From contig CAZSWV010000003.1 in assembly GCA_964611295.1 (NCBI GenBank), positions 6,449 to 70,448 on the forward strand: a stretch of 64,000 bases of DNA, written 5' to 3'. Positions 17,981 to 64,000 of this stretch are shown here, in pieces. The notes beneath the pieces were generated by a model. That model saw only the letters and a list, made by a program, of their open reading frames with translations, was not told the DNA's origin and ran no database searches. Origin of the DNA: an uncultured Thermodesulfobacteriota bacterium. GTDB lineage: Bacteria; Desulfobacterota; B13-G15. The translations under genes were made by a program, and so were the position numbers. Within the stretch, counting starts at the first letter, position 1. Each line of letters begins with the position of its first letter.

Positions 17981-18469
17981 CTATCCTACCCAGGGGATCT
18001 CCAAGACTTGAAGGCACCGGGAAGGGCAGACTGCAACGCATATGGGCTCTTTCCCATCGCGGACCCTATGGAGGCATAGGTCACACATGGCCACTGTCCC
18101 GTCTGGCAAGAACTCGGGGGCCCCTATGGGACAAGCCTCTTTACATAGACCGCACCCTGTACAGATATCCCTGTCCACTTCAAGGACGCCTTCTTGGGTT
18201 TGGAATATGGCCCCAAGCGGACATGCCTCCTTACAAAGAGGGTGCGTACATTGCCTACACACCACAACTCTAAAGGACTGCCCCACCTTTCCATCTACAA
18301 TAAAGGGGCCTCCTTCAAATACCCTTATGAAGGACGGTCCCTTGGGTTCGGCCTGGGGAGGGGAAGTGGGATAAGGGGGGAATTGGTGTTCCATCTTGCA
18401 GGCAACTGTACACGCGCGACATCCTATACATTTCCTTGGATCTACCTGGAGCTTAAGCCTCATCCTCAA
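17981..18469 (-). CDS. 4x[4Fe-4S] ferredoxin-type electron-transfer subunit of a molybdopterin oxidoreductase (DmsB/PsrB/BthL-like)
   Basis: Four Cys clusters: CIGCRACTVAC, CRQCTHPLCKEACP, CTGCGLCKEACP, CDLCLHR...CVAVCP. Overlaps and follows the Mo-subunit gene. Confidence 0.75.
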   Translation of the reverse strand: MRMRLKLQVDPRKCIGCRACTVACKMEHQFPPYPTSPPQAEPKGPSFIRVFEGGPFIVDGKVGQSFRVVVCRQCTHPLCKEACPLGAIFQTQEGVLEVDRDICTGCGLCKEACPIGAPEFLPDGTVAMCDLCLHRVRDGKEPICVAVCPSRCLQVLEIPWVG

Positions 18470-32442: not shown

Positions 32443-32903
32443 CCTTTAACCTCCTTCTTCATGAGTTCAATGGCTAGCCTTACCGCCTTCTTTATCCGCG
32501 GATAGGTCCCACACCTACAAATCACGTCATCGAGTTGCCGTATGACCTCTTCATGGTTTGGCAAAGGCCTCTTGGACAAAAGGTATGCCACCTGCATGAT
32601 TATCCCCGGCTGACAATACCCACATTGGGGAACTTGCTCTATCAACCAAGCCCTTTTTACAGGATGGTCCGCAGGAAGCCCTTCTATCGTCACCACTTCC
32701 TTACCTTCAACTTCCCCCACAGGAAGCACACAAGACCTCTGCGCCGCCCCGTCCACGTGAACCGTACAAGCACCACATTCCCCTACCCCACATGCATACT
32801 TGGTACCCGTAAGTTTCAAATGATCCCTTAAAACCCACAAAAGGGGCGTATCAGGAGAAACATCCACTTTATATACCTTACCGTTCACCTTTAACCTCAA
32901 CAT
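32439..32903 (-). CDS. (2Fe-2S)-binding small subunit of the Mo hydroxylase (IorA-like)
   Basis: 154 aa with CGVGECGAC (plant-type 2Fe-2S) and CGYC...C (second 2Fe-2S). Translationally coupled to the large subunit. Confidence 0.8.
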   Translation of the reverse strand: MLRLKVNGKVYKVDVSPDTPLLWVLRDHLKLTGTKYACGVGECGACTVHVDGAAQRSCVLPVGEVEGKEVVTIEGLPADHPVKRAWLIEQVPQCGYCQPGIIMQVAYLLSKRPLPNHEEVIRQLDDVICRCGTYPRIKKAVRLAIELMKKEVKG

Positions 32904-46468: not shown

Positions 46469-47695
46469 TCAGGGCGATTCTGGAGTTGGCGGGTAACCTG
46501 CCTTACGTAAGGCTTCCTCAAGGGCTTCTTTAGGGACTTGGCCTTCAACCCCCACCTTTTTCTCCTTCAGGTCCACTACCACGCGTTCTACCCCTTCTAA
46601 CTGCTTCAAGGTCTCCTCTATACGGGCCTTACAACCCTCGCAGCTCATAGTAGGTACTCGAAATGTGTATCTCATAACCTCTACCTCCCCTCTACTTGCC
46701 TTGGACAGACGTTCCCTCAAAAAAGCCCCTCCTATAACGAGAACGAGCAAAGCCCCTGTGATCCCTTTTAACCAAGGAGGTAAGAACTCGCCACCCGGTT
46801 TGAAGAACTCCGGAACCCCCTCTGCCCATCCCCATAACAGATTCATAACCCAACCCAAGAGGAAGGCCGAACCTATGACCGAGAGCAAATAAGTGGAAAC
46901 CGCCTTCTTGCCGAGGCGCGAGTACACAAAGCCTACGGTCACAGCGTTTGTGGCAGGGCCGGCTATGAGAAACACCAGGGCAGCCCCTGGGGACATCCCC
47001 TTTGCCATCAAGGCGAAGGCGATGGGGATAGACCCTGTAGCGCATACGTAAAGGGGAACCGATACGCCTAATATCGCTAAGAACTCCAGTAATTGACGTT
47101 CCCTGAGGGGTTCAAAGGCCCCTTGGGGAACAAAGGCACCTAAGGCACCGCCTACAAGGACTCCCAAAACCAGCCATTTCCCTATGTCCTTTGGAAGCTC
47201 TACAAAACCGTAACGGAAAGTCTCTAAAAACCTATTGGCATAAGGCCTTTGGGAAAGGTGGCATTTGGCCCCCTTGTCCCTTTCCTCCGGAAATAGAAAA
47301 GATAAAAGGCCCACGGCAAGCCCAGACAGCATGGAGGCAAGGGGTCTGAAGATGGCAAAGAGAGGACCGAGTAGGGAATAAGTAGCCAAAATGGAATCGA
47401 CACCTGTAGTCGGGGTCGAGGTCATGAAGGCAAGGACCGCCCCTTTGGAGGCCCCTTGTTGGTGCAAGGTGGCAGCAACTGGAATCACCCCACATGAACA
47501 AAGGGGCAAAGGTATTCCAAACAAGGTGGCCTTCCACACCGAAGAAAAGGAAGGGTTACCTAGATGCTTGGTAATGAACCCCTCGCGTAAAAAGGCATGG
47601 ATTATACCCCCCATTAACATCCCTAAAAGGAGGTATGGGCTCATCTCCACCCATAGCCTCGTAGAGCCTTTTACTAGCTCGTAAAGGTAATTCAT
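46469..47695 (-). CDS. permease of the ArsP/DUF318 (PF03773-like) family fused to a C-terminal heavy-metal-associated (HMA) domain
   Basis: PLCSCG permease motif and about 8 TM segments. C-terminal MSCEGCKARIE HMA fold. Confidence 0.6.
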   Translation of the reverse strand: MNYLYELVKGSTRLWVEMSPYLLLGMLMGGIIHAFLREGFITKHLGNPSFSSVWKATLFGIPLPLCSCGVIPVAATLHQQGASKGAVLAFMTSTPTTGVDSILATYSLLGPLFAIFRPLASMLSGLAVGLLSFLFPEERDKGAKCHLSQRPYANRFLETFRYGFVELPKDIGKWLVLGVLVGGALGAFVPQGAFEPLRERQLLEFLAILGVSVPLYVCATGSIPIAFALMAKGMSPGAALVFLIAGPATNAVTVGFVYSRLGKKAVSTYLLSVIGSAFLLGWVMNLLWGWAEGVPEFFKPGGEFLPPWLKGITGALLVLVIGGAFLRERLSKASRGEVEVMRYTFRVPTMSCEGCKARIEETLKQLEGVERVVVDLKEKKVGVEGQVPKEALEEALRKAGYPPTPESP

Positions 47696-48138
47696 CCGGA
47701 AAGGACCTCTACTTCGTCTCCTGCCCTAACTTGCCCACCCCTTATGACCCTGGCAAAGACGCCCTCACGCGGCATTATACAATCACCCACCTGCCGGTAG
47801 ATGGCACACCTCGAGTGGCATTCCTTGCCTATCTGGGTCACCTCCAGAATGACCTCACCTACCCTGAGCCTTGTCCCCGGTTTGAGGTCCGATAACCTTA
47901 TACCCCTGATAGTGAGGTTTTCGGCAAAGTCCCCTGGACCCACCTCAAGCCCAAGGCTTCTCATGTAGAGGATACTCTCTTCGGAAAGGAGGCTCACTTG
48001 TCTCGACCCCCCTTTTTCGGCATGGCCATCTCCTATAAGCCCGTAATCTACTTCAAAGGAACCCACCTCAACAGGCCTCTTCTTCGTCCCCTTTTCGGGG
48101 CTGAGACACACTGCCAATACCTCTCCCTTCAGTTTCAC
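47692..48138 (-). CDS. MOSC domain-containing protein
   Basis: 148 aa. Conserved Cys in GKECHSRCAIY and a MOSC beta-barrel pattern. Confidence 0.75.
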   Translation of the reverse strand: MKLKGEVLAVCLSPEKGTKKRPVEVGSFEVDYGLIGDGHAEKGGSRQVSLLSEESILYMRSLGLEVGPGDFAENLTIRGIRLSDLKPGTRLRVGEVILEVTQIGKECHSRCAIYRQVGDCIMPREGVFARVIRGGQVRAGDEVEVLSG

Positions 48139-48878
48139 GCCTTACCTCCACACACTGGACAAAGGGGGTTCCTTTCTACCTTTACCACCGTAAACTCCAT
48201 GGTCTCGGCATTTATCAGCAACAACCTACCTATAAGCGGTTCCCCTATCCCAGCAAGTACCTTTATGGCTTCTGCAACTTCAAGGCTAGACACTACCACA
48301 GGCGTAAATCCAAAGACAGGGAAGGGTCTTGGGCCTTCTATGTCTTTTGGGAAAACACACCGTAAACAAGGACCTTGTCCGGGCAAGACAGTGGTCACCT
48401 GACCCATAAAACCATAGATCCCCCCGTGTACGAAAGGTATGCCAAGCTCTATACAGGCCTTGTTGAGTACAAAACGCGTAGCCATGTTGTCCATGGCATC
48501 GACCACAAGCTGAGCCCCATTTAAAAGTTCAAAAACGTTCTCCTCTGTTATCCTTTCCTCAAAAGCCTTGAATTGGACCGTAGGGTTTAGCCTCTGTAAT
48601 TTCCTCAAGGCAGATTCTACCTTCATCCTCCCGATGTCCTCGTCCCAGTGCAGGAGCTGGCGGTTGAGGTTTGACAGCTCGACCTTGTCGCAGTCTATTA
48701 TGGTGATCCTCCCCACACCAGCTGCCGCAAGCAACATGGAAGCCGTGGATCCCAACCCTCCCACGCCTGCCACAACCACGTGAGCCCCTTTTAACTTCCT
48801 TTGCCCTTCCTCCCCGAAAGAAGGCCAGAGGATCTGCCTACTGTAGCGCTCAAGGTCATAGGGGGTTAGTTCTACCAT
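48135..48878 (-). CDS. ThiF/MoeB-family E1-like adenylyltransferase
   Basis: YSRQIL; GVGGLGS glycine-rich ATP loop; CLRC...CPVC zinc motif. Confidence 0.8.
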   Translation of the reverse strand: MVELTPYDLERYSRQILWPSFGEEGQRKLKGAHVVVAGVGGLGSTASMLLAAAGVGRITIIDCDKVELSNLNRQLLHWDEDIGRMKVESALRKLQRLNPTVQFKAFEERITEENVFELLNGAQLVVDAMDNMATRFVLNKACIELGIPFVHGGIYGFMGQVTTVLPGQGPCLRCVFPKDIEGPRPFPVFGFTPVVVSSLEVAEAIKVLAGIGEPLIGRLLLINAETMEFTVVKVERNPLCPVCGGKA

Positions 48879-48881
48879 CTC

Positions 48882-49166
48882 CTATGTCTTTTCCCGCTCC
48901 TTTTCAGACAAAAAAGAGCAATAGGCTCTAAAGAGGGCCTCTTTGTAATCCACCTCGTAGTTTTGAGGCACGTAATTCCTCTTGGATACTTCCTCTAAGA
49001 GGGCTTCTTTTACTTCCTCCTCGTCCTTTATGCCCCTTTGCATTACGTTAAGAAAGGCCTCTTCAAGGCCTATAACTCCAACCAATACGCCTTTTATCTG
49101 GAGCATCTTTAAGTCTTCTTGAACAGCCCCCGTACAACAGGTACAGATGGGTTTATCCTTTTCCAT
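48882..49166 (-). CDS. small hypothetical protein with N-terminal CTCC (CxxC) motif, hcp-associated
   Basis: 94 aa, PICTCCTG then an acidic helical tail. Located between hcp and the E1/MOSC genes in the same orientation. Confidence 0.35.
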   Translation of the reverse strand: MEKDKPICTCCTGAVQEDLKMLQIKGVLVGVIGLEEAFLNVMQRGIKDEEEVKEALLEEVSKRNYVPQNYEVDYKEALFRAYCSFLSEKEREKT

Positions 49167-49262
49167 TGCCTCTTGCTATCTTTCATCCTACATCATCTCC
49201 TGACACATTGAAAGATGCCCTCTGCCTCCGCAACTCTCCATAGGCTTCGTAAAGGCCACACG

Positions 49263-50903
49263 TTAACTTTCCCTGGAGAGTGCCTGGGCTAGGTCCTTTA
49301 GAGGGTCTGTCACGGTCCTTATGTCGTAATCCCTCCTTAGAAGTTCAAGGACCTTAGGCGTTAAGAAGGCAGGAAGGCTTGGGCCGATCATTATCCCCTT
49401 TATACCGAGGTAAAGGAGGGTGAGCAGTATGGCCAGGGCCTTTTGCTCATACCAGGAGACGACAAGCGTCAAGGGGAGTTGGTTTACCTCTACACCCAGG
49501 GCATCTGCTAAGGCCTGGGCCACCTTTATGGCAGAGTAGGCGTCGTTGCATTGACCCATATCAAGGATACGGGGAATACCCTCTATCGTGCCTAGGTCCT
49601 CGGCAAAGAAGCGGAACTTCCCGCACGCAAGGGTCAATACCACTGTGTCTTTTGGGGCCCTGAGGACGAACTCTCGGTAATAGTCCCTTTCTTTCTTCCT
49701 GCCATCACATCCGCCTACAAGGAAAAAGTGCCTGATTTTGCCCTCGCGCACCGCATCTAGGACCTTGTCTGCTAACTCCATCACCGCGTTTCTTGCAAAA
49801 CCCACCATGACCTGTCCCTTTTCCTCCTCGGTATCAAACCCGGGTAGCTCAAAGGCCGTCTTTATGACCTCCGAGAAGTCCTCGCCTCTTACGTGTTTCA
49901 CGCCAGGGTAGCCCACAGGACCGCAGGTGAACAGCCTTCCTTTGTAGTCCTCCTTAGGCGGCACAAGGCAGTTAGTAGTCATAAGGATAGGACCAGGGAA
50001 AAGGGGGAACTCCTTCTGTTGGTTCGCCCAAGAGGTACCGTAATGGCCGTATAAGTGGCCGAACTCCTTGAGTTTGGGGTAACCATGGGCAGGAAGCATC
50101 TCACCGTGGGTGTAAACGTAAACGCCCTTGTCTGCTGTCTGACGCAAAAGTAGTTCGAGATCCCTTAGGTCGTGCCCAGAGATCAAAACGGCCTTGCCAG
50201 CCTTATGCCCCAAGGGGACCACCGTAGGCTTCGGATGACCATAAGCAGACGTATTTGCTTCGTCCAGAAGCTCCATAGTCCTCAGATTGACCTTGCCCGC
50301 CTCAAGAAGAAGTCCCAACCAGGAGGCCACATCCACCTTTTGGGGCTCAAGATAAGCGGCAAGTCCTTTGTAAAGGAAGTCATAAATGGCCTGGTCCTCC
50401 TTGCCGAGCCTCTGGGCATGATAGGCATAAGCCGCTATACCCTTAAGCGCGACAAGTAACGTGTAGCTGAGATAGAAGACCTCAGGATCCAAAACCTCTT
50501 TCCTCGTTTCCGGACTAACCCTCTTTGCCTGTTCAAGGAGCGTACCTTCATCTTGAGCCGGTACAAAGTCTACAGCCTCATGCGAGGGCACAGTCCTCGA
50601 TTTCTCTGAAAGCCTCCACTTCAACTCATCCCTATAATCTATGGTTCTCTTGAGGTATTCCCTCATACGTTCCTTGTCGAAATTCACGTTGGTCTTAGTG
50701 GAGAAAAGGGCCTCGCACAAAAAGGCGTTTATCTGATTCAAGTCAATCCCCGTTTCCCTGGCCTCCTGGAGACAAAGGGCCAATCCGCCCAGGACGTATA
50801 CCAGGAGGTCCTGAAGGTAAGCCACTTCTGGGGGTTTCCCACAGACCCCTAATTTAACACACCCTTGTCCCTTCGCCGTCTCTTCGCATTGAAGGCATAA
50901 CAT
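49263..50903 (-). CDS. hcp: hybrid cluster protein (hydroxylamine reductase / NO reductase)
   Basis: MLCLQCEETAKGQGC N-terminal cluster motif and 546 aa length. Confidence 0.85.
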   Translation of the reverse strand: MLCLQCEETAKGQGCVKLGVCGKPPEVAYLQDLLVYVLGGLALCLQEARETGIDLNQINAFLCEALFSTKTNVNFDKERMREYLKRTIDYRDELKWRLSEKSRTVPSHEAVDFVPAQDEGTLLEQAKRVSPETRKEVLDPEVFYLSYTLLVALKGIAAYAYHAQRLGKEDQAIYDFLYKGLAAYLEPQKVDVASWLGLLLEAGKVNLRTMELLDEANTSAYGHPKPTVVPLGHKAGKAVLISGHDLRDLELLLRQTADKGVYVYTHGEMLPAHGYPKLKEFGHLYGHYGTSWANQQKEFPLFPGPILMTTNCLVPPKEDYKGRLFTCGPVGYPGVKHVRGEDFSEVIKTAFELPGFDTEEEKGQVMVGFARNAVMELADKVLDAVREGKIRHFFLVGGCDGRKKERDYYREFVLRAPKDTVVLTLACGKFRFFAEDLGTIEGIPRILDMGQCNDAYSAIKVAQALADALGVEVNQLPLTLVVSWYEQKALAILLTLLYLGIKGIMIGPSLPAFLTPKVLELLRRDYDIRTVTDPLKDLAQALSRES

Positions 50904-50960
50904 CTTTCATACCTCCTTTTGTTTTTTCCTAACTATAACCCATACCCTATTTTGGAAACC

Positions 50961-50974
50961 TTGACTTAGGTCAA
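50961..50974. promoter_or_regulatory. perfect palindrome TTGAC-N4-GTCAA: candidate HcpR/FNR-type box
   Basis: TTGACTTAGGTCAA lies in the 114-bp divergent hcp/hcpR intergenic region. It is 58 bp upstream of the hcp ATG and 43 bp upstream of the hcpR ATG. Confidence 0.4.
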
Positions 50975-51017
50975 AAGCCCCCTTGTCTTGAAAATGGCTT
51001 TTTGATAGGGATGGTGT

Positions 51018-51710
51018 GTGTTTCGGGTATCAAAGGAAAAACTGCGACAGATCCCGCTTTTTTCAGGCCTGAGCGATGAGGACCTTGAGGCCCTTTCCGA
51101 AACTTTTCTCTTTAAATCCTTCAGGCCCAAAGAGGTCATCTTCTATGAAGGGGAGGAAGGGCATGGATTCTTTGTGGTCCTTCGGGGTTTAGTTGAGGTC
51201 TTTAAGCTTTCAAGCGAAGGCAAAAAGCAGATCTTACATATCCTTGGTCCTGGAGAGCCTTTCGGTGAAGCAGCCGTGTTCGAGGGGGGGAAGTTCCCTG
51301 CCCATGCTTTGTCTTTGAGACAAAGCGAAGTCCTTTATTTCCCCAAGGAAAGTTTTTTAAAGCTCGTCAGGGAGAGGCCTGAAATCGCTCTGAGGATGCT
51401 TGCTGTAATGGCCCGTAGGCTTAAGGAGATGGTGTCTCTGGTTGAGGACCTGTCGCTGAAGGAGGTAACAGCACGTCTTGCTAGCTTCCTCTTTTACGCC
51501 TATCAGAGGGAGGGGAAAAAGGACTTACACCTTGAGTTCTCTAAGACCCAACTGGCAGGGCTTTTGGGTACGGTCCCGGAGACCTTGTCCCGCGCCTTGA
51601 AACGTCTAAGCGAAGAGGGCCTAATTTCAGTTGAACCCAAGAGGATCGTGGTCAAGGACCCCTTGGGGTTACTAAAAAGAGGTACGGGAGATCTCGAGGC
51701 GTTTTTTTGA
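51018..51710 (+). CDS. hcpR: Crp/Fnr-family transcriptional regulator, HcpR-like
   Basis: cNMP-binding beta-barrel plus C-terminal HTH (TQLAGLLGTVPETLSRALKRL). Divergent from hcp. Confidence 0.75.
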   Translation: MFRVSKEKLRQIPLFSGLSDEDLEALSETFLFKSFRPKEVIFYEGEEGHGFFVVLRGLVEVFKLSSEGKKQILHILGPGEPFGEAAVFEGGKFPAHALSLRQSEVLYFPKESFLKLVRERPEIALRMLAVMARRLKEMVSLVEDLSLKEVTARLASFLFYAYQREGKKDLHLEFSKTQLAGLLGTVPETLSRALKRLSEEGLISVEPKRIVVKDPLGLLKRGTGDLEAFF

Positions 51711-55128: not shown

Positions 55129-55413
55129 CTAAGGGGCCTCAGGCCTTTGTCGCCGGAGCCGCACCTCTACAAGGTTTTCGGGATCGGGACATTGCACGAC
55201 CACTTCGTCTCCCTCCCACCAAGGCATCGATCCCCCAAATTGCAAGGTCGCAAGGGTGGGGAAGATGGCATGATAGAAGAAACCGCAAAGCCCCCCAGGG
55301 TTGTGACAACTTATTTCGAACTTTTCTCCCACATGATGGCCGGCGCTACAGTTTCCCCTAACGGAAATGACTTCCGCTATGACCTTATATCCTATCCCTG
55401 GATCTCTTGCCAT
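55129..55413 (-). CDS. TIGR04076-family small protein
   Basis: 94 aa. [17 protein letters not shown]...[17 protein letters not shown] matches my recollection of the TIGR04076 Cys/His pattern. Confidence 0.5.
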
Positions 55414-55495: not shown

Positions 55496-58400
55496 ATGGG
55501 TCGGTTCTTCATAGGTGTGGATATCGGTTCCGTTAGTGCCAACACCGTGGTGATGGACGAAGCCCTTGAGGTGCTCGAAGAACATTACGACAGGATAAAG
55601 GGAAGGCCCCTTGAGGTCGTAAAGGGGAGACTTGAGGAGATCTTGAGCCGAATACCCCTTGAGGAGATCTCCGGCCTTGCCTTCACTGGGAAAGGCAGCA
55701 AGCTTTTGGCTGAGATCCTTGAAGCACCCTTTTACAACGAGGTAATAGCCCAAACCAAAGCCGTGGAACGGTTTTATCCGGAGGCACGCACCATTATAGA
55801 CATCGGGGGTCAGGACTCTAAGTTCATTTTATTAGAACAAGAAGGGGGCAAACTCAGGATAAAGGACTTTGGTATGAACACCCTGTGTGCCGCAGGAACC
55901 GGCAGCTTCTTGGACCAACAGGCGAGCCGTCTCGGGTTGACCATCGAGGAGTTTTCGCTCCTTGCACTGAAGTCCAAGAACCCGCCTCGTATCGCAGGTC
56001 GTTGTAGCGTTTTTGCCAAAAGTGACATGATCCACTTACAACAGATAGCTACTCCGGACTACGACATAGTAGCCGGGCTCTGTTATGCCCTTGCACGTAA
56101 CTTTAAGAGCAACATAGCAAGGGGGGCAGAACTCAGGCCTGTGGTGGTCTTCCAAGGAGGGGTAGCAGCCAATTTGGGCATGCGAAAGGCCCTAAAGGAG
56201 GTCCTTGAGCTTGAGGACCACGAGTTCCTTGTACCTACCCATTTTGCCTCAATGGGGGCAATAGGCGCAGTGCTTTTGGCCCTTGAAGAAGGGGCGATGA
56301 GGGGTCTTGGAGGTCTTAAACCCCTTGAGACCTTCCTCAGCTCTTATAAACAGGAGTACAGCTCCTGGGAACCCCTAAGCCTAAGCGAATCGCACCTTAA
56401 ACCAAAGGCCCATGTTTGGGTCTCAAAACCCGAAGTGGGCAAGAAGATCCCAGCCTACCTCGGTATAGATGTGGGGTCCATATCCACCAACTTGGTGGTG
56501 ATAGACGAACAAGGGAGGGTCCTCGCGAAGCGTTACCTCATGACAGCGGGAAGGCCCTTGGAAGCGGTGCGCCAAGGTTTAAAGGAGATAGGCGAAGAGA
56601 TAGGCCACCTCGTGGAGATAAAAGGGGTGGGGACCACTGGTTCAGGGCGCTACCTCACAGGGGACTTCGTGGGGGCTGATGTGGTGAGGAACGAGATCAC
56701 CGCACAGGCGACAGCTGCCATCCACATAGACCCAGAGGTAGACACCATTTTCGAGATAGGGGGACAGGACTCCAAATACATAAGCATCGACCGCGGGGTG
56801 ATAGTGGACTTTGAGATGAACAAGGTTTGCGCAGCCGGAACCGGCAGTTTCCTTGAGGAACAGGCCGAAAGGCTGGGCCTTGACGTGAAATCCAATTTCC
56901 AGGAATTGGCCCTTAAGGCCCCTGCGCCGGTGAAGATGGGGGACCGTTGTACTGTCTTCATCGAATCAGACCTCATACACCACCAACAGCGCGGGGCAAG
57001 GTTAGACGACCTCGTGGCTGGTCTCTGCTATTCCATCGTGCTGAACTACTTGAACAAGGTAGTTGGTGACAGGAGGATCGGCCAGAAGATCTTCTTCCAA
57101 GGAGGAACCGCCTTCAACAAAGGGGTGGTGGCGGCCTTCGAGAAGGTCTTGGGACGTCCCATTACGGTACCTCCACATCATGAGGTCACTGGAGCGATAG
57201 GGGCTGCCCTTTTGGCCATGAAGGAAAGGACCTGGGAGAAATCCAACTTCAAGGGTTTTGACCTCTCGAACCGCCGCTATGAGATAAACACCTTCGAATG
57301 CAAAGGTTGCCCCAATATGTGCCTGATCAGGAAGGTCACCATTGAAGGCGAGAGGGATCCTCTATATTACGGGAGCCGTTGTGAAAAGTACGATGTGTTG
57401 AGGCGGCGTAAGAAGTCAGAGATACCTGACCTATTCCGTGAAAGGGAGAGGTTGCTTTTGGCCCCCTACCCTGGAGAAGATAGGCTTCCGGAGGAGGCCC
57501 CTCAGGTAGGGATACCAAGGTGTTTGGCCTTCATGGAACTTTTGCCCTTTTTTAAGGCCTTTTTCACAGAACTTGGATTCAAAGTGGTCCTTTCGGACAG
57601 GACTAACAAAGAACTCATACGCCAAGGGGTGGAGGCCGTGGTGGCCGAAACCTGTTTCCCCGTCAAGGTGGGTCACGGCCATGTGTTAAACCTCCTTCAG
57701 AAGGGGCTTAAACGGATCTTTGTCCCGAGCATCGTGGGGATGCCCAAGTTCCACCCAGATATGGAGCACTCGCAAAACTGCCCGTATGTACAATCCTTCC
57801 CCTATGTGATCAGGTCAGCCATTCCCTTTGAGGACTATGGGGTGGAGTTGCTTAGCCCGGTGGTGCCCTTCGGGTGGGGCGAAAAAGAAGTAGAGGAGGC
57901 CCTGATAGAATTCGGATGCTCCCTGGGCAAAAGCCCTTCAGAGGTTAGATGGGCCCTAAGGTGCGCATGGGATTTCTACCAGAGGTTCCTCAAGGCCTGC
58001 AAGGCCAAGGGGCGTGAGGTTTTGGAAGAGCTGAAGGGTTGGGAAAGGGCCATGGTGATAGTGGGAAGGCCTTACAACACCTGTGATCCAGAGGTAAGCC
58101 TTGAGATACCCAAGAAGCTGAGGGAGATGGGCGTTTTGGCAATCCCCATGGACTTTTTGCCTTTGGAAGAAAAGGCGAACAGGGAGGGTGTGAAGGAGAT
58201 GTACTGGCGCTATGGCCAGAGGATCCTGGCCTGTGCCCATTTCATCCGGGAGGACAAGAGGCTATACCCCATTTACATATCCAACTTCGGCTGTGGTCCT
58301 GACTCCTTTATCATCCACTTCTTTAGGGAGATAATGGGCGACAAACCCGCCTTGATCTTAGAGATAGATGAACACAGCGCAGATGCAGGGATTATAACGA

Positions 58401-59707
58401 GGCTTGAGGCCTTTATGGACAGCCTTAAGAACGCCAAACCCAAAGGTTCGGTCTTCCAAAGACGTGGTAGGATAGGGGGTGACCCAGAAAGGGTCATATA
58501 CATACCTTATATGTGCGACCATGCCTTTGCCTTTAAGGCAGCCTTTGAGGCCTGTGGGGTGAAGGCCGAGGTCTTCCCTGAATCTGACCAAGAGACCCTC
58601 TTCTGGGGAAGGAAATACACTTCGGGGAAGGAGTGCCTGCCTTGTGTCTTGACCACTGGTGACATGGTGCGCATTGTGAAAAGCCCAGGGTTTGACCCAA
58701 AGAAAGCGGCCTTTTTCATGCCTTCGGGAAACGGTCCGTGCCGATTCGGCCAATACCATCGCTTTCATAGGAAGGTCCTGGACGAACTGGGCTTTGAGGA
58801 CGTCCCTATCTATTCACCCAATCAGGACGAAACCCTTTACAGGGACCTTGGCATCTTGGGGTCTAAGTTCTCCAGGCTCGGCTGGTGGGCCATAGTGGGG
58901 GTAGATTTACTGCAGAAGAAGCTTCTAGAGACCCGTCCCTATGAGGTGAACCCCGGTGAGGCCGAAAGGACCTATTGGGAGTGTTTGAATGGGTTCTGTG
59001 AGCTCTTACGAAGGGACCCTGACATAGAGGAGGTGGTTCAATACCTCATCTCCTGCAGGAACCGCATGGACGCTATCCCTCTAAAGGACAAAGGGAGCAA
59101 ACCCAAAATAGGGGTAGTTGGGGAGATTTACATTCGGCTTAACCGTTTTGGGAACGAAGACGTCATAAAGAAGATAGAGCAGCTCGGGGGTGAAGCGAGG
59201 CTTGCCCCGTTAACTGAATGGGTGCATTACATAAACAAAATGGCCAAGCGAAGGGCTTCAAAGAGAAAGCACTGGAAAAACCTAATGGGTATCCTCATAA
59301 GGGAGTTTTACCAACACAAGGACGAGAGGAAACTTGCCGAGGCCTTCTATGGTTCTATAGAAGAGCCGCTTGAACCACCGACAGAGTGGATCCTTAACTT
59401 GGCAAGTCCCTATGTCCATGATTCCTTTGAAGGCGAGGCCATTCTAACCATCGGTAAGACCATCGATTACGCCTTGAAGGGGGCCTCGGGGGTAGTTAAC
59501 GTCATGCCCTTCACTTGTATGCCTGGAACCATTACTACGGCTATCTTGAAGCGATACAAGGAGCTAAACGGCAATTTCCCTGTTCTCAACATCTCTTATG
59601 ATGGGCAAGAACAGGGAGACGTCTTGACGCGCCTTGAGGCCTTTATGTATCAAGTGAGGCAGTACCAAGAAAGGCTTAAAGAAAAAGGGCTTCAAGGGGA
59701 ACCATAG
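55496..59707 (+). CDS. giant fusion protein: two tandem BadF/BadG/BcrA/BcrD-type ATPase (acyl-CoA dehydratase activase HgdC-like) domains plus DUF2229/HgdB-like C-terminal domains
   Basis: 1403 aa. FIGVDIGSVSANTVV and YLGIDVGSISTNLVV are sugar-kinase/actin-fold ATPase N-termini. Each domain carries a conserved Cys pair for a bridging 4Fe-4S (NTLCAAGTGSF; NKVCAAGTGSF). A CKGCPNMC linker follows. C-terminal half resembles the dehydratase D-component. Confidence 0.8.
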   Translation: MGRFFIGVDIGSVSANTVVMDEALEVLEEHYDRIKGRPLEVVKGRLEEILSRIPLEEISGLAFTGKGSKLLAEILEAPFYNEVIAQTKAVERFYPEARTIIDIGGQDSKFILLEQEGGKLRIKDFGMNTLCAAGTGSFLDQQASRLGLTIEEFSLLALKSKNPPRIAGRCSVFAKSDMIHLQQIATPDYDIVAGLCYALARNFKSNIARGAELRPVVVFQGGVAANLGMRKALKEVLELEDHEFLVPTHFASMGAIGAVLLALEEGAMRGLGGLKPLETFLSSYKQEYSSWEPLSLSESHLKPKAHVWVSKPEVGKKIPAYLGIDVGSISTNLVVIDEQGRVLAKRYLMTAGRPLEAVRQGLKEIGEEIGHLVEIKGVGTTGSGRYLTGDFVGADVVRNEITAQATAAIHIDPEVDTIFEIGGQDSKYISIDRGVIVDFEMNKVCAAGTGSFLEEQAERLGLDVKSNFQELALKAPAPVKMGDRCTVFIESDLIHHQQRGARLDDLVAGLCYSIVLNYLNKVVGDRRIGQKIFFQGGTAFNKGVVAAFEKVLGRPITVPPHHEVTGAIGAALLAMKERTWEKSNFKGFDLSNRRYEINTFECKGCPNMCLIRKVTIEGERDPLYYGSRCEKYDVLRRRKKSEIPDLFRERERLLLAPYPGEDRLPEEAPQVGIPRCLAFMELLPFFKAFFTELGFKVVLSDRTNKELIRQGVEAVVAETCFPVKVGHGHVLNLLQKGLKRIFVPSIVGMPKFHPDMEHSQNCPYVQSFPYVIRSAIPFEDYGVELLSPVVPFGWGEKEVEEALIEFGCSLGKSPSEVRWALRCAWDFYQRFLKACKAKGREVLEELKGWERAMVIVGRPYNTCDPEVSLEIPKKLREMGVLAIPMDFLPLEEKANREGVKEMYWRYGQRILACAHFIREDKRLYPIYISNFGCGPDSFIIHFFREIMGDKPALILEIDEHSADAGIITRLEAFMDSLKNAKPKGSVFQRRGRIGGDPERVIYIPYMCDHAFAFKAAFEACGVKAEVFPESDQETLFWGRKYTSGKECLPCVLTTGDMVRIVKSPGFDPKKAAFFMPSGNGPCRFGQYHRFHRKVLDELGFEDVPIYSPNQDETLYRDLGILGSKFSRLGWWAIVGVDLLQKKLLETRPYEVNPGEAERTYWECLNGFCELLRRDPDIEEVVQYLISCRNRMDAIPLKDKGSKPKIGVVGEIYIRLNRFGNEDVIKKIEQLGGEARLAPLTEWVHYINKMAKRRASKRKHWKNLMGILIREFYQHKDERKLAEAFYGSIEEPLEPPTEWILNLASPYVHDSFEGEAILTIGKTIDYALKGASGVVNVMPFTCMPGTITTAILKRYKELNGNFPVLNISYDGQEQGDVLTRLEAFMYQVRQYQERLKEKGLQGEP

Positions 59708-60477
59708 CTCTTTACGGGGTTCCTTAAGGTACCTATCCCTTCGATCCGTATTTCTACTACGTCGCCTTCCTTAAGGGGACCTATGCCTGAAGGGGTGCCT
59801 GTTGCGATGACATCTCCAGGCATAAGGGTCATCACCTTTGATACGAAACACAGCAGCTCAAGGGGGCTAAAGACCATCTTCGAGGTACGGCTCGATTGTT
59901 TAAGTTGGCCGTTTACCAGGGTTTCTATCTTCAGGTCCGATGGGTCTATATCGGTGACTATCCATGGTCCTAAAGGGGCAAAGGTGTCAAATCCTTTTGC
60001 CCTTGTCCATTGGCCATCGCGTAGCTGGAGGTCTCGGGCTGTAACGTCGTTGAAACAACAATATCCAAGTACGTATTTGTGGGCTTCTTCTAAACGCACA
60101 TCTCTACAGGGCTTAGCCACCACTAGGGCAAGTTCTCCCTCGTAATCTACCCTTTGAGAATCGGGGGGTAGGAATATAGGTTCATCAGGCCCTATGACGG
60201 CCGAAGGGGGTTTAAGGAATATCACTGGTTCTTTGGGCACCTCTAGTCCTACCTCCTCGGCATGATCCTTGTAGTTCAACCCCACCCCAACTACCTTAGT
60301 GGGTAGGACCGGAGGGAGAAGTTTTACCTCGGATAGTTCGGTTTTGACCCTCAGAGGCCTCATCCCTTTAAATGGATCCCCTTCCTGGAGTTCTATAACT
60401 CCACCTTCAATGACCCCAAAGCAACATCTCCCGTTTCTCAAATAGACCCTGACTATCTTCAACCTCTTCTCCTCCAA
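59692..60477 (-). CDS. fumarylacetoacetate hydrolase (FAH) family protein
   Basis: VGVGLNYKDHAEE, GELALVV, GDVIATGTPSGIG. Confidence 0.8.
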   Translation of the reverse strand: MEEKRLKIVRVYLRNGRCCFGVIEGGVIELQEGDPFKGMRPLRVKTELSEVKLLPPVLPTKVVGVGLNYKDHAEEVGLEVPKEPVIFLKPPSAVIGPDEPIFLPPDSQRVDYEGELALVVAKPCRDVRLEEAHKYVLGYCCFNDVTARDLQLRDGQWTRAKGFDTFAPLGPWIVTDIDPSDLKIETLVNGQLKQSSRTSKMVFSPLELLCFVSKVMTLMPGDVIATGTPSGIGPLKEGDVVEIRIEGIGTLRNPVKSYGSP

Positions 60478-60563
60478 TAGTTTTTAAGGGCATGTTGCCA
60501 AGTTCTTGCTGAGTATTCTATAAAAAAGGCAACTTTTAAATACAGAACTAAGGGGGTTAAGCC

Positions 60564-61871
60564 TTGGCATCCCAAAGGCAGAAAGAAGCGGTGGAAAAGT
60601 GGATTTTGGCTGAAGACTTCATTTTTAAAGACAATCACGCAAAGAAAAGGTACCAAACATATTTGCAGAGGTTTGTCGACTCGGTCTTTTTGGAGAAACA
60701 ACCTGATAGGGTCCCTGTATTCATAACGGGTACCTTTCTTGTCCCGAACCTTTATGGCTTGAGTCCTTACGAGGCTATGTACGACTACGAGGCTGTGATC
60801 GAAGCCCACATCAGGTTTTTAAGGGATTTTGACCCGGACTATGCCCTTACCCCAACCACCATAGGATCAGGTAAGGTCCTTGAAATCATAGGTTTCAAAC
60901 AGTATAGATGGCCGGGCCATGGGGTTCCTTCGACTTCTGTCTACCAATACGTAGAAAGACCCTATATGGAAGACCACGAATACGAGATCCTTATCAATGA
61001 TCCCTCGGATTTTTGGTTGAGATGTTATCTCCCCAGGGTGTGTGAAGTTTTTGAACCCTTTGCCAAAATACCGCCCTTAACAGACCTATGGGAGATTATC
61101 AACTATACCCCCTTTTTTTCTGCCTTCGGTATAGATGAGGTCCAGAAGGCCTTAAACAAGCTTTCAGAAGCAGGAAAGGAGGCGAAGTCTTGGGTAGAGA
61201 AAGTCAAGTCCTTCTCTTTAGAAGCCAAAGCCTTAGGATATCCTGTGCTAGTTGGCGGGACCACGAAGGCGCCCTTCGATTTAATTGCTGACACGTTGAG
61301 GGGAACCAAAGGTGCTTTAATTGATATGTACAAGAGGCCAGACCTATTACAAAAAGCATTGGAGCGGCTTACTCCCATAGCCATTTTGCAAGGAATAAGA
61401 GGGGCAAGAGCTAGTGGTAATCCTGTGGTATTTATACCCCTTCATAAGGGCAGCGACGAATTTATGTCTGATAGGCAATTTAAGACGTTCTATTGGCCAA
61501 CCTTAAGGACCCTTATCGAGGGACTTGTGGAAGAAGGTTGCATACCTTACGTATTCGCGGAAGGCTCTTTTAACAGTCGTTTGGATTACCTTAAAGAACT
61601 GCCCAAAGCTTCCTGTTTTTGGAGGTTTGAGAGGACAGACATGGCAGAGGCCAAAAAGAAAGTGGGCGATTGGGTCTGTATTTCAGGTAACGTACCCCCT
61701 GCCATACTAATGCATGGCAGTCCCCAAGAAGTGAAGGATTATTGCAAAAGACTTATAGATACCTGCGCAGCTGGTGGTGGCTTTATTCTATCCCCCGCTT
61801 CAACTCTTGACGAAGCCAGGCCAGAAAACATAAAGGCTATGATTGAAATATGCAGGGAATATAAAGGTTAG
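60564..61871 (+). CDS. uroporphyrinogen decarboxylase (URO-D) family protein (MtaA/CmuA-like methyltransferase-type)
   Basis: TTG start with AAGGGGG RBS. C-terminal GGGFILSPASTLDEARPENIKAMIE matches the URO-D family C-terminus. At 435 aa it is longer than hemE. Confidence 0.5.
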   Translation: MASQRQKEAVEKWILAEDFIFKDNHAKKRYQTYLQRFVDSVFLEKQPDRVPVFITGTFLVPNLYGLSPYEAMYDYEAVIEAHIRFLRDFDPDYALTPTTIGSGKVLEIIGFKQYRWPGHGVPSTSVYQYVERPYMEDHEYEILINDPSDFWLRCYLPRVCEVFEPFAKIPPLTDLWEIINYTPFFSAFGIDEVQKALNKLSEAGKEAKSWVEKVKSFSLEAKALGYPVLVGGTTKAPFDLIADTLRGTKGALIDMYKRPDLLQKALERLTPIAILQGIRGARASGNPVVFIPLHKGSDEFMSDRQFKTFYWPTLRTLIEGLVEEGCIPYVFAEGSFNSRLDYLKELPKASCFWRFERTDMAEAKKKVGDWVCISGNVPPAILMHGSPQEVKDYCKRLIDTCAAGGGFILSPASTLDEARPENIKAMIEICREYKG

Positions 61872-61874
61872 CGT

Positions 61875-63182
61875 TCAATAGGTGATATAAGCTGGAAGAA
61901 ATGTTACGATGATTGGGAAAACAGTTATAATAACTGTCGCAATGATAAGGGCAACTACAAAAGGAATAATGCCTTTAAATATTTGCTCTATTGGAACATC
62001 CTGAACAATTCCTTTTACTACAAACACGTTAACACCTACAGGTGGTGTCAAAACGCCCATTTCTCCCAGTAGCACTATAATGACACCGAACCAAATTGGA
62101 TCAAATCCTAATTCTGTTACAAGAGGGTAAAATATAGGTACAGTTAATACTATCAAAGCCATTGAATCCATAAAAAACCCTCCGAAAAAGTAGGTGAGCA
62201 TTATGATCACCATCACAACTATAGAAGGGACATTGAGGGATTTCACAAATTCTATCAATTCAAAGGGAATCCTCGTAACCGCGATGAAGTAACCGAAAAG
62301 GGTAGCACCTACGATGATGAAGAACACCATACACGAAGTCCTTAGGCCTTCTCGACAGGCCCAAAGCAAGGCCTTTTTGTTCAATTTCCCTCTGGCTAAG
62401 CCTATCACTAACGCGCCAGCAGCCCCTACTGCTCCTGCTTGTGTCGGGCTAAACCATCCTAAGAAAAGACCTCCCAATGCCAATGCAAACAATATTGCTA
62501 CTTCTGTAACGTTGACAAGGACCTTTACCTTTTCCTTAAAGGTAAAGTTCTTCCCCCTAGGTGCTACTTCAGGTCGTTTCAAACACGTTAAGTAAACCGT
62601 CAAAGCAAAAAGCAAACTCACCAAAATCCCTGGTAGGATCCCTGCCACGAAAAGTTTGCCAATAGATTGTTCCGTTAATATCCCATAGATTATGAGCACT
62701 GTACTAGGGGGAATCAATATCCCCAATGTTCCACCTGCAGCAACTGTTCCACTTGCAAAAGAATCATCGTAACCGTACTTTCTCATCTCGGGTAAAGCAA
62801 TCTGCCCCATTGCTGCAGTTGTAGCTGTACTTGAACCACATATTGCGCCAAAACTAGCACATGCAAAAATCGTAGCTATGCCTAACCCACCTCGCCAGTG
62901 GCCTAACCACGTGTAAGCAGCCCTATAAAGTCTCTCACTTATACCTGAAGCCGATGCAAATGTACCCATTAACACGAACATTGGTATTACACTAAGGGGA
63001 TAGGAAGAAAGCTCTTCAAAAAAAACCCGAGATATCATCAGCAAAGCACCATCTAAGTTTGTCAACCAAATAAGCCCACAAAAGCCCACAACGCCCATCG
63101 CAAATGCAACAGGCATCCCTAAAAGAAATAACAATATCAGACAACATATCCCTATAACTCCTATATCTCCCGGACTCATCAA
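61875..63182 (-). CDS. dctM: TRAP transporter large permease subunit
   Basis: 435 aa, about 12 TM, DctM pattern. AT-rich coding. Confidence 0.8.
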   Translation of the reverse strand: MMSPGDIGVIGICCLILLFLLGMPVAFAMGVVGFCGLIWLTNLDGALLMISRVFFEELSSYPLSVIPMFVLMGTFASASGISERLYRAAYTWLGHWRGGLGIATIFACASFGAICGSSTATTAAMGQIALPEMRKYGYDDSFASGTVAAGGTLGILIPPSTVLIIYGILTEQSIGKLFVAGILPGILVSLLFALTVYLTCLKRPEVAPRGKNFTFKEKVKVLVNVTEVAILFALALGGLFLGWFSPTQAGAVGAAGALVIGLARGKLNKKALLWACREGLRTSCMVFFIIVGATLFGYFIAVTRIPFELIEFVKSLNVPSIVVMVIIMLTYFFGGFFMDSMALIVLTVPIFYPLVTELGFDPIWFGVIIVLLGEMGVLTPPVGVNVFVVKGIVQDVPIEQIFKGIIPFVVALIIATVIITVFPIIVTFLPAYITY

Positions 63183-63201
63183 AATACCCCTAATCCTTTG
63201 T

Positions 63202-63702
63202 TTATGTCTTACGTAATTCTTCCGAAATTCTTTCTAAATACTTTAAAACAAAAGGCAACAACCCAATAGATATAACCAAAGGGAAAGGGAACAAAGGAAT
63301 TTTGGCGGTAGCACTATGTTCTCCGCTTTTGTAAAAAGAATAACCTAATAGTGCCAACCGCCATATAGCTATAGAGGTAAAAGCTATGAGTACAAAATAC
63401 ACACAAAGGTTTATGACTTTTTGAGATTTTCTGGATAGTCTTCTTAAGAAGAACTCTACCGTAATATGTCTGCCCGCTAATAACGTAGCACCTGCAGACA
63501 ACGAAATAGCAACAACCTGAGATAACATTACAATATCTATTGCACCAAATAGCCTCCACTTTAAAAGTTTAGCTCCAACAATATCTACACATGTCACACA
63601 CATTATCACAAGGATAGCTACAGCTCCTATACTTTCAAGTTGGTGCGAAATATACTGCACAAACTTCCCCTCTTTTTCTCCTAAAGAACACAACCTCCGC
63701 AT
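63202..63702 (-). CDS. dctQ: TRAP transporter small permease subunit
   Basis: 166 aa, 4 TM, immediately upstream of dctM. Confidence 0.6.
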   Translation of the reverse strand: MRRLCSLGEKEGKFVQYISHQLESIGAVAILVIMCVTCVDIVGAKLLKWRLFGAIDIVMLSQVVAISLSAGATLLAGRHITVEFFLRRLSRKSQKVINLCVYFVLIAFTSIAIWRLALLGYSFYKSGEHSATAKIPLFPFPLVISIGLLPFVLKYLERISEELRKT

Positions 63703-63736
63703 TACAGAAAAACCTCTTTCTACTGCTCTGGACCTC

Positions 63737-64000
63737 TCATTTCACAACTACCAAGTTCTCTGGGAGGATTGCTTCTGGCCCTGCAGGAGAAGGTATGTGC
63801 AGTTCTATTTGCTGTTTAGTCCAGTAGTCAATTCGTTGTTTAATAAAATCTATCCATCCTCTTACTTCGCTTTCTTTGTAACCTTTTTCCACCATGCGTT
63901 TCACGTAACTTTCTATCACAGGCTGCACGGCTTCGACCCACCTTTTAGCTTCAGTGTCTGGTAGCCAATAAAATTGCACACCGCGTTCTCTAGCAAACTT
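63737..64000 (-). CDS. dctP: TRAP transporter solute-binding protein, C-terminal part (gene continues beyond window end)
   Basis: The open frame runs to the window edge. It sits upstream of dctQM in P-Q-M order. The C-terminal helices resemble the DctP family only weakly. Confidence 0.4.
   Translation of the reverse strand, partial: KFARERGVQFYWLPDTEAKRWVEAVQPVIESYVKRMVEKGYKESEVRGWIDFIKQRIDYWTKQQIELHIPSPAGPEAILPENLVVVK

Follow-up and report, generated by a model that had tools for sequence, protein, structure and literature searches.

A gene cluster at positions 46469-51710 of a 64-kb stretch of DNA from an uncultured Thermodesulfobacteriota bacterium (contig CAZSWV010000003.1) comprises hcp, which encodes the hybrid cluster protein, a divergent gene for a regulator of the Crp/Fnr family (hcpR), and four further genes behind hcp on the same strand. 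The whole stretch is termed "the window", and its coordinates are used throughout. An earlier note on this DNA had taken hcp and the genes behind it for one HcpR-controlled operon. We read the cluster instead as two adjacent units, the HcpR-hcp pair and a putative soft-metal(loid) efflux module, in which a SO_0444-type permease with a heavy-metal-associated (HMA) domain would act together with a CxCC adaptor protein and a ThiF-MOSC sulfur relay. We regard this two-unit reading as an even call. It is based on other lineages, in which the module is conserved without hcp, and on a small 94-aa protein whose family keeps company with ArsP_1-type permeases. The features of the locus are as follows:

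51018-51710, plus strand: hcpR, regulator of the Crp/Fnr family (HcpR1 type) with cNMP_binding and HTH_Crp_2 domains, divergent from hcp
50961-50974, no strand assigned: HcpR operator TTGACTTAGGTCAA, a perfect TTGACnnnnGTCAA box that matches the HcpR consensus
50932-50937, minus strand: TATAGT, candidate -10 element of the hcp promoter, read from the sequence
49263-50903, minus strand: hcp, hybrid cluster protein of 546 aa, matching Prismane/hydroxylamine reductase models, with class I cysteine spacing
49167-49262, minus strand: spacer of 96 nt between hcp and the gene for the 94-aa protein, terminator-free by scan and RNA fold
49185-49213, minus strand: candidate internal promoter (TTTCAA, 17 nt, TAGGAT), the sole block conserved among three spacers
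48882-49166, minus strand: gene for the 94-aa CxCC protein, of a family without Pfam or NCBIfam model
48135-48878, minus strand: ThiF/MoeB-type E1-like adenylyltransferase (PF00899)
47692-48138, minus strand: minimal MOSC-domain protein of 148 aa (PF03473 only)
46469-47695, minus strand: permease of the SO_0444 family (ArsP_1 superfamily) with C-terminal HMA domain (NF033936, ArsP_1, HMA)
47492-47500, minus strand: CSC motif of the permease (Cys66-Ser67-Cys68 in the translation)
46493-46666, minus strand: HMA domain of the permease (residues 344-401, PF00403, 65 bits) with the metal site MSCEGC

All six open reading frames (ORFs) were recovered where the earlier note had placed them and on the same strands, and its domain calls (ArsP_1 plus HMA, MOSC, ThiF, Hcp and Crp/Fnr) hold. 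The genes behind hcp are tightly coupled, as had been claimed, yet they number four instead of five (five including hcp). Of the 3-4 nt overlaps described for them, two are real, since ThiF/MOSC and MOSC/permease overlap by 4 nt each. The other junctions are a 3-nt spacer between the 94-aa gene and ThiF, and the 96-nt gap between hcp and the 94-aa gene.

Gene contexts were sampled by twelve locus look-ups, a single genome scan, and a metagenome scan with ThiF as query; loci of relatives used for comparison are designated L011, L012 and so forth. Linkage of hcp to the module was seen only in the window, L017 and L028. The ThiF proteins of L017 and L028 are 89% and 86% identical to the window protein, respectively, and both loci share the gene order of the window between proA and the sigma factor gene. 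Because these three species are fully syntenic, the adjacency of hcp and module in them says little. In L019, found by the metagenome scan, the order is ThiF-LarE-MOSC-permease/HMA-HAD, and ThiF, MOSC and permease are 74%, 71% and 60% identical to their window counterparts. The more distant pair L029/L030 (GCA_964543765.1) carries ThiF-LarE-MOSC-permease/HMA as overlapping genes (69%, 63% and 55% identity for ThiF, MOSC and permease), with a divergent cysteinyl-tRNA synthetase (CysRS)-fusion gene upstream, a promoter-like TTGCAA...TATAAA site before ThiF and no hcp in the 6-kb flanks. The order small gene-ThiF-LarE is found in L018 (94-aa protein 50% and ThiF 79% identical), where 556 nt of AT-rich non-coding DNA lie upstream of the small gene.

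L020 likewise has no hcp within 1 kb upstream. Its MOSC gene (L020 2594-2908) is truncated, with approximately 69 residues still matching, and a deletion has removed the permease/HMA gene, whereas the sister contig L019 (1659-3319) keeps both. L020 is a decayed copy, in which the export half of the module has been lost naturally and ThiF and LarE stay. The additional gene of the relatives passes the LarE model (283 bits, cutoff 150). The ThiF proteins of the module are 69-89% identical to the window ThiF, with the next-nearest E1 enzymes at no more than 51%.

Since the module recurs without hcp in other lineages, the conserved entity consists of ThiF, MOSC and permease/HMA, accompanied in part of the loci by the small protein and by LarE. 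In the window lineage LarE has been lost cleanly and the module adjoins hcp. The co-occurrence of hcp with ThiF and MOSC, proposed in the earlier note as a check, was seen in the three syntenic species only and is absent from L029/L030, L020 and L018. Moreover, a single N-hydroxylamine- and nitric oxide (NO)-detoxifying pathway of five genes is at variance with a module that is conserved without hcp in L029/L030 and L020. The possibility that the E1/MOSC pair is a conserved part of a molybdopterin biosynthesis locus unrelated to hcp, which the note had named as an argument against itself, is borne out in part.

The 96-nt spacer behind hcp contains no terminator-like site according to the scan, and its RNA fold (z -0.49) is not better than that of shuffled sequences. 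As a terminator is absent after hcp in the window, HcpR-driven read-through into the module is possible. The corresponding spacer of L028 measures 246 nt and harbours, immediately after the hcp stop codon, a GC-rich hairpin of 14 bp (L028 4726-4757; -31 kcal/mol, z -5.0). This hairpin is missing in the window and in L017, and thus the spacer differs sharply among close relatives. An alignment of the three spacers revealed a single conserved block, AGGGCnTCTT(TC)(CT)AAT ... GTAGGAT, located just upstream of the 94-aa gene and composed of TTTCAA or TTCTAA and an invariant TAGGAT, with 17 nt of varying sequence in between. The block looks like a promoter in its pattern of conservation, and in the window it would give a leader of approximately 12 nt. 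No HcpR-like box was found directly before the module.

Given the conserved promoter-like block, the L028 hairpin and the lack of an HcpR box before the module, HcpR control of the four genes is unproven, and independent transcription of the module would seem at least as likely. The regulation proposed in the earlier note is supported for hcp, which has an operator, but not for the genes downstream. Independent transcription of the latter, which the note had conceded would undermine its reading, is partly supported by the same block and hairpin.

The first unit is of a familiar kind. Hcp matches NF003658 (750 bits, cutoff 367) and TIGR01703 (721 bits, cutoff 361) over its full length, and the four cysteines of its N-terminal cluster are present (C3-x2-C6-x8-C15-x5-C21). 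HcpR is composed of PF00027 (84 bits) and PF13545 (61 bits) domains and contains no cysteine at all in 230 residues, and hence no FNR-type Fe-S site. Aligned by eye and without gaps to the Escherichia coli CRP helix GCSRETVGR, the recognition helix of HcpR (GTVPETLSR) has a Pro at CRP position 180 and a Glu at position 181.

According to the portion of Rodionov et al. 2005 (PMC1274295) used here, regulators of the HcpR1 class lack the FNR cysteines and carry Pro or Ser at position 180 and Glu at position 181; the Pro/Glu class is tied to TTGAC boxes, and the HcpR consensus is wyTTGACnnnnGTCAArw. A perfect TTGACnnnnGTCAA occurs once in the 64-kb window, between hcpR and hcp, and L028 has a one-mismatch box at the equivalent position. 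With its centre at about -42.5 from the predicted hcp start, the operator would have the geometry of a class II activator site. The divergent HcpR-type regulator reported in the earlier note is thus present beside hcp, together with a matching operator, and we take hcpR-hcp to be a textbook nitrosative-stress/NO-defence pair of a kind already known. In the divergent cysteine-free Crp/Fnr regulator, the TTGACnnnnGTCAA box before hcp and the Pro/Glu positions, it agrees with the HcpR-hcp regulon of anaerobes as that portion of the paper describes it. The extensions of this regulon listed there include the ferredoxin-like FrdX, reductases for nitrite and nitrate, genes of sulfate reduction and a permease paired with a ferredoxin, but not an E1/MOSC/ArsP_1-HMA set as found here.

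HcpR-type sites with at most one mismatch occur six times in the window, versus 1.6 expected. One of them, the FNR/HcpR-like palindrome TTGACCCATATCAA (49551-49564, one mismatch), lies inside the hcp coding region. It was considered as a second HcpR box serving an internal promoter and rejected, being located within hcp and approximately 380 nt from the start of the module. As neither L017 nor L028 has such a site at the corresponding position, it is probably due to chance.

The core of the second unit is the permease. It reaches 341 bits on NF033936, the model of the SO_0444 Cu/Zn efflux family (cutoff 300), as does its L029 orthologue with 344 bits, and scores 172 bits on the SaoE model, below the cutoff of 325. 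Its HMA domain matches the N-terminal domains of CopZ, CopA and ZntA in the PDB, and the same permease-HMA architecture is found in an Aureibacter plasmid protein that is 39% identical and annotated as SO_0444 family. Haft and Gwadz described Cys-Ser-Cys as the signature of these permease families, which they regarded as heavy-metal exporters, and in Shewanella loihica zinc resistance depends on an ArsP/DUF318 relative encoded beside ZntR. A resistance phenotype is known for Shewanella relatives only. By family membership and motifs, the window protein is thus a putative soft-metal(loid) exporter of the Cu/Zn-efflux family. An identity as an ArsP organoarsenical exporter is not supported, since the 10 kb to each side of the locus contain no ars genes and the SaoE cutoff is not reached. 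Compared with the SO_0444/SaoE/ArsP proteins in general (PF03773; Organo-Arsenical Exporter family in TCDB), the permease agrees in passing the SO_0444 cutoff, in its CSC motif and in the HMA fusion also seen elsewhere, but differs in that its operon also encodes ThiF, MOSC and a CxCC adaptor, and in lacking an adjacent metal regulator.

The 94-aa protein contains the predicted CTCC motif (C8-T-C10-C11), but is not a member of DUF1858 or of the hcp-associated redox-disulfide families, which the earlier note had suggested as candidates: no Pfam or NCBIfam family matches at E<=0.01, and the same holds for 60 relatives, apart from fused thioredoxin domains. A word-indexed search retrieved the protein itself only, and an exhaustive HMMER search found 200 cluster representatives at E<=1e-3. 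Together with a confident AlphaFold model, these representatives establish the ORF as a real gene. The model (pLDDT 86, pTM 0.73) predicts a disordered Cys-rich N-terminus followed by a beta-hairpin and three helices. Foldseek found no match to it in the PDB (best E 0.79) or BFVD, and a PDB profile search of the family gave matches confined to the fused thioredoxin columns.

The relatives share a domain of approximately 70 residues, I-x-G-x2-VGI-x-GL ... NYVP ... Y-x2-AL-x-EY, in which Asn64, Tyr65 and Tyr74 are invariant and no cysteine is conserved. The cysteines of the family sit in variable appendages, which in the window type is an N-terminal CC or CxCC tail. In 16 of the 60 relatives a C-terminal Thioredoxin_3/MTH895-ArsE domain is fused to the domain, and others carry a 2x[4Fe-4S] ferredoxin or a DGC domain; all fusion partners are thus thiol or redox modules. 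As its C-terminus (...EREKT) has no GG and its fold is not a beta-grasp, the 94-aa protein was rejected as the ubiquitin-like sulfur carrier of ThiF.

Members of this family occur repeatedly beside ArsP_1 permeases. In Methanolinea (L013/14) the order is ArsR, ArsP_1, small protein (overlapping stop and start codons), Thioredoxin_3, DGC ... DsbD, and an archaeal contig has ArsR ... ArsP_1, the family member (4-nt overlap) and Acr3. In L032 the ArsP_1 gene lies immediately upstream of the family member with overlapping stop and start codons, and in L011 and L015 both belong to the same ArsR-headed island. A Thermodesulfobacteriota metagenome-assembled genome encodes ArsP_1, an ArsE-type thioredoxin and a small-thioredoxin fusion in a row. 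The gene orders found also include ArsR, small-thioredoxin fusion, Acr3 ... ArsC, ArsP_1, and Thioredoxin_3, family member, DGC, DGC, ArsC ... Acr3; a ferredoxin-fused member has no ars-type context. The simplest reading of these contexts is that the domain may be an adaptor, through which an ArsP_1-type permease is provided with a thiol or redox head. The ars-type islands (ArsP_1, MTH895/ArsE, DGC, ArsC, Acr3) are thus the home of the family, which is often permease-coupled or ArsE-fused there; the window, in contrast, has no ArsR, ArsC, Acr3, DGC or thioredoxin gene, and its permease is of another subfamily.

One island with a member of the family is unusually rich in thiol and redox genes. 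It is headed by ArsR and extends over approximately 10 kb (L012 1495-11073) of a 1.56-Mb contig, encoding GcvH, lipoate ligase, a radical SAM protein, OsmC, a pyridine-nucleotide disulfide oxidoreductase and three DGC proteins, as well as Thioredoxin_3, the 94-aa family member, ArsC, DUF169, Acr3 and a NifU-like protein.

ThiF is typical of a MoeB/ThiF-type E1 enzyme in sequence, with 256 bits on PF00899 and the Zn motif reported in the earlier note, formed by the CxxC pairs Cys171/174 and Cys240/243. Its best NCBIfam matches are MoeB models, and it stays below all NCBIfam equivalog cutoffs, those for MoeB, ThiF, MoeZ and UbaA included (best scores 268 of 449, 242 of 450, 234 of 266 and 217 of 275 bits). 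Over its full length it is 48% identical to an E1 that adjoins a MoaD-like protein ending in AGG and a tungsten aldehyde ferredoxin oxidoreductase (AOR), and GG-ended carriers adjoin related E1 enzymes in L022 and L034. The window ThiF resembles the E1 components of the MoeB/ThiF-MoaD/ThiS, TtuC-TtuB-TtuA and UbaA-SAMP systems in its zinc tetracysteine site and in having relatives that pair with LarE or GG-ended proteins. The difference lies in the partner, as the window has no GG-ended beta-grasp carrier and the neighbouring 94-aa protein is not of that fold.

YcbX, YiiM and mARC, which belong to the MOSC family, reduce N-hydroxylated compounds, and the earlier note had suggested such an activity for the MOSC protein of the module. 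The latter consists of PF03473 as its sole domain (53 bits), resembles the C-terminal MOSC half of MoaC/MOSC fusions (NCBIfam), and possesses neither a MOSC_N, a 3-alpha nor a 2Fe-2S domain; moreover, no reductase or ferredoxin gene is present in the module. Cys107, His108, Cys111 and Cys120 are invariant and form an extra C-H-x2-C...C motif, in which Cys107 aligns with the cysteine of the YiiM family in a weak profile match only (E 0.37). The protein thus shares with YcbX, YiiM, mARC and the C-terminal domain of the molybdenum cofactor (Moco) sulfurase the MOSC beta-barrel domain and, with YiiM, the aligned cysteine, but differs from YcbX, YiiM and mARC in its 148-aa length, in the absent MOSC_N, 3-alpha and ferredoxin domains, in the extra motif and in its sulfur-relay contexts. 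With accessory domains and electron donor absent and relatives found in such contexts, an N-reductase of the YcbX/YiiM/mARC type is not what the sequence suggests.

The relatives of this MOSC protein are numerous (more than 7,900 at E<=1e-20), and among the 120 matches listed most are 60-68% identical to it. One of their contexts, on a Syntrophales contig, reads IscS-NifU-MnmA-NadA-MOSC ... YcaO-FdhD. A 2026 survey placed ThiF, LarE and MOSC/YiiM among the sulfur-relay neighbours of Thi4, and earlier work predicted MOSC domains to be sulfur carriers and also reported them in Mo/W-cofactor operons. From these contexts we infer that ThiF and MOSC may form a sulfur-relay pair.

A related arrangement was encountered in L034 (4181-7180; also in L035), where an IscR/CymR-like Rrf2 regulator precedes five genes in the order 63-aa Cys-rich protein ending in AGG, ThiF (350 aa), 152-aa protein with a CxxC-rich N-terminus ending in GGG, conserved MOSC protein and 243-aa secreted protein with CC/CCC motifs. 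Two of the three small proteins have no NCBIfam match, and that of the 63-aa protein is marginal and stays below the cutoff. The cluster looks like an undescribed E1/ubiquitin-like protein/MOSC sulfur-relay system.

Judged from homology and gene context, the two units may work as follows. HcpR would bind the TTGACTTAGGTCAA box and activate hcp from a class II position. In the second unit, the exporter would bind a soft metal(loid) through its membrane CSC motif and its cytosolic HMA domain. The conserved, cysteine-free helical domain of the 94-aa protein would dock on the permease or on a common partner, and its flexible CxCC tail would present thiols, where relatives have a thioredoxin CxxC or an Fe-S ferredoxin instead. 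ThiF and MOSC would contribute adenylation-driven sulfur activation and a cysteine sulfur carrier, respectively, to which relatives add the sulfur insertase LarE, and the pair might provide or restore a ligand with sulfur, or a thiol state, on which export depends. The module probably has its own weak promoter, and HcpR-driven read-through from hcp may add to its expression.

Several observations weigh against this two-unit reading. We know of no metal exporter that needs an E1 enzyme or a MOSC protein, and the link between sulfur relay and export is therefore a conjecture. Among ORFs of 45-130 aa, the 64-kb window offers no plausible GG-ended candidate for the carrier of ThiF, and no ArsR, MerR/ZntR or CsoR metal-sensing regulator is encoded next to the module. 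The permeases of the ars islands score approximately 100 bits on the SO_0444 model, compared with 341 bits for the window permease, and are thus of a different subfamily. With 63-66% identity even to proteins from unrelated contexts, the MOSC protein may have a housekeeping function and simply share the transcript. Finally, the -35 element of the candidate internal promoter matches the consensus in 3 of 6 positions and the element was not called by a consensus scan, and co-transcription with hcp is possible, given a terminator-free spacer in the window and an adjacency kept in three close species.

Among the alternatives, the one that fares best holds that ThiF, as a MoeB, and MOSC are housekeeping genes of Mo/W-cofactor synthesis or thiolation, which share a transcript with an unrelated exporter and its adaptor. 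This agrees with the MoeB models as best matches of ThiF, with the likeness of the MOSC protein to the MOSC half of MoaC/MOSC fusions and the reports of MOSC in Mo/W-cofactor operons, with the E1 beside a MoaD-like protein and tungsten AOR, with a MOSC protein equally conserved in all contexts, and with ORFs of the xanthine-dehydrogenase and molybdopterin oxidoreductase types in the window. However, none of moaA, moaC, moaD, moaE, moeA and mog occurs within 10 kb on either side of the locus, ThiF reaches neither the MoeB nor the ThiF equivalog cutoff, and the order ThiF-(LarE)-MOSC-permease/HMA is kept, with its overlaps, down to 55-69% protein identity. Because order and overlaps persist over this distance, a functional link of ThiF and MOSC to the permease is favoured, and we consider the housekeeping alternative unlikely.

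Alternatively, the module might be co-transcribed with hcp as an NO-coupled efflux system, which clears zinc, copper or iron released by NO and repairs thiol or sulfur sites. NO sets zinc free from metalloproteins, and Salmonella requires the zinc exporters ZntA and ZitB for its resistance to NO (PMC6094482); the permease would fit such a role as a member of a Cu/Zn-efflux family, as would the missing terminator and the adjacency in three species. But the hcp linkage is confined to one clade, L028 has a stem-loop after hcp and no HcpR box precedes the module, so that we rate this alternative as rather improbable.

A third alternative, to which we also assign little probability, is that the four genes, together with LarE and the HAD phosphatase in relatives, mediate a soft-metal export that depends on a ligand built by the sulfur relay. 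The ligand generated by ThiF, MOSC and LarE would be a thiocarboxylate or a persulfide, formed either on the CxCC adaptor or on a small molecule of the pincer type. It would capture Cu, Zn, As or similar ions, the SO_0444/HMA permease would extrude the complex, and the position behind hcp would serve to clear NO-released metal. For pyridine-2,6-dithiocarboxylic acid (PDTC) and thioquinolobactin, E1-type or PP-loop adenylating enzymes make the thiocarboxylates, and a transporter handles the metal-binding product. By analogy to PDTC, the presence of LarE and a HAD phosphatase in relatives may point to a small product of the pincer type. The likeness to PDTC, thioquinolobactin and the LarE-dependent nickel-pincer cofactor would lie in the combination of an adenylating enzyme with a transporter, and relatives carry a bona fide LarE; the window version, however, has lost LarE, and LarA, LarB, LarC or pdt-type genes were not seen.

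The single HcpR operon of the earlier note, in which Hcp reduces NO and hydroxylamine, MOSC with Moco reduces N-hydroxylated compounds, the E1 serves the cofactor and the permease removes a product, can draw on the genuine hcp with its HcpR box, the terminator-free spacer, the arrangement kept in three species, the activity of YcbX, YiiM and mARC and the molybdoenzyme-like ORFs of the window, but is highly improbable in view of a module that exists without hcp in other lineages, a linkage of little weight among syntenic species, a MOSC protein without MOSC_N, 3-alpha domain or redox partner whose relatives occur in sulfur-relay and not detoxification contexts, a 94-aa protein that is not DUF1858-like and goes with ArsP_1 permeases, the promoter-like block before the module and the L028 hairpin.

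Under the two-unit reading, the HcpR-hcp pair is already known, while the combination of a metal exporter with a sulfur relay and a small protein family without a model is undescribed; as the earlier note had surmised, no operon of this composition was found in the literature. Permeases of the ArsP_1/DUF318 type abound in anaerobes and archaea, yet their mechanism is obscure, and the same applies to their small thioredoxin-like and DGC neighbours. The 94-aa family defines a further putative partner of these permeases, a domain of approximately 70 residues with interchangeable heads (CC tail, ArsE-type thioredoxin or ferredoxin). In addition, the genes for an E1-like enzyme, a minimal MOSC protein and LarE show a stable linkage to one subfamily of the permeases. 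If this link is functional, it would tie sulfur-relay chemistry to metal(loid) export, outside current models, and would offer a testable role for a very widespread and highly conserved minimal MOSC protein. For annotation, the locus teaches that genes behind hcp are not automatically members of the HcpR nitrosative-stress regulon.

The flanks of the locus within 10 kb on each side are of a housekeeping nature and include mutS, pcm, a sigma factor gene, proA, nadD and a glycosyltransferase gene. No Rfam family matches in the locus or in the leaders of the relatives, and hence neither a Moco nor another riboswitch is present; in the whole window Rfam recognizes three tRNAs and nothing else. Farther away, 18453-20579 contains an ORF that resembles a 708-aa molybdopterin oxidoreductase, and 30259-32903 harbours xanthine-dehydrogenase-family-like ORFs, a 727-aa subunit with an N-terminal twin-arginine (Tat)-like leader and a 2Fe-2S subunit (both assigned by eye from ORF translations only). 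With such molybdoenzyme-like ORFs the organism would need a Mo/W cofactor, and hence a MoeB. The region at 24.3-25.9 kb is covered by a 617-aa minus-strand ORF.

A Cys/His-rich ORF, likewise of 94 aa and without Pfam hits, lies on the minus strand at 55129-55413, beside the gene for a giant protein of 1403 aa (55496-59707, plus strand), which is of the BcrAD_BadFG/DUF2229 type and resembles activators of 2-hydroxyacyl-CoA dehydratases. At the end of the window (60000-64000) the G+C content falls from approximately 0.52 to 0.41-0.45, and the GC skew is strongly negative in the final 2 kb; this segment may mark the border of a differently derived region.

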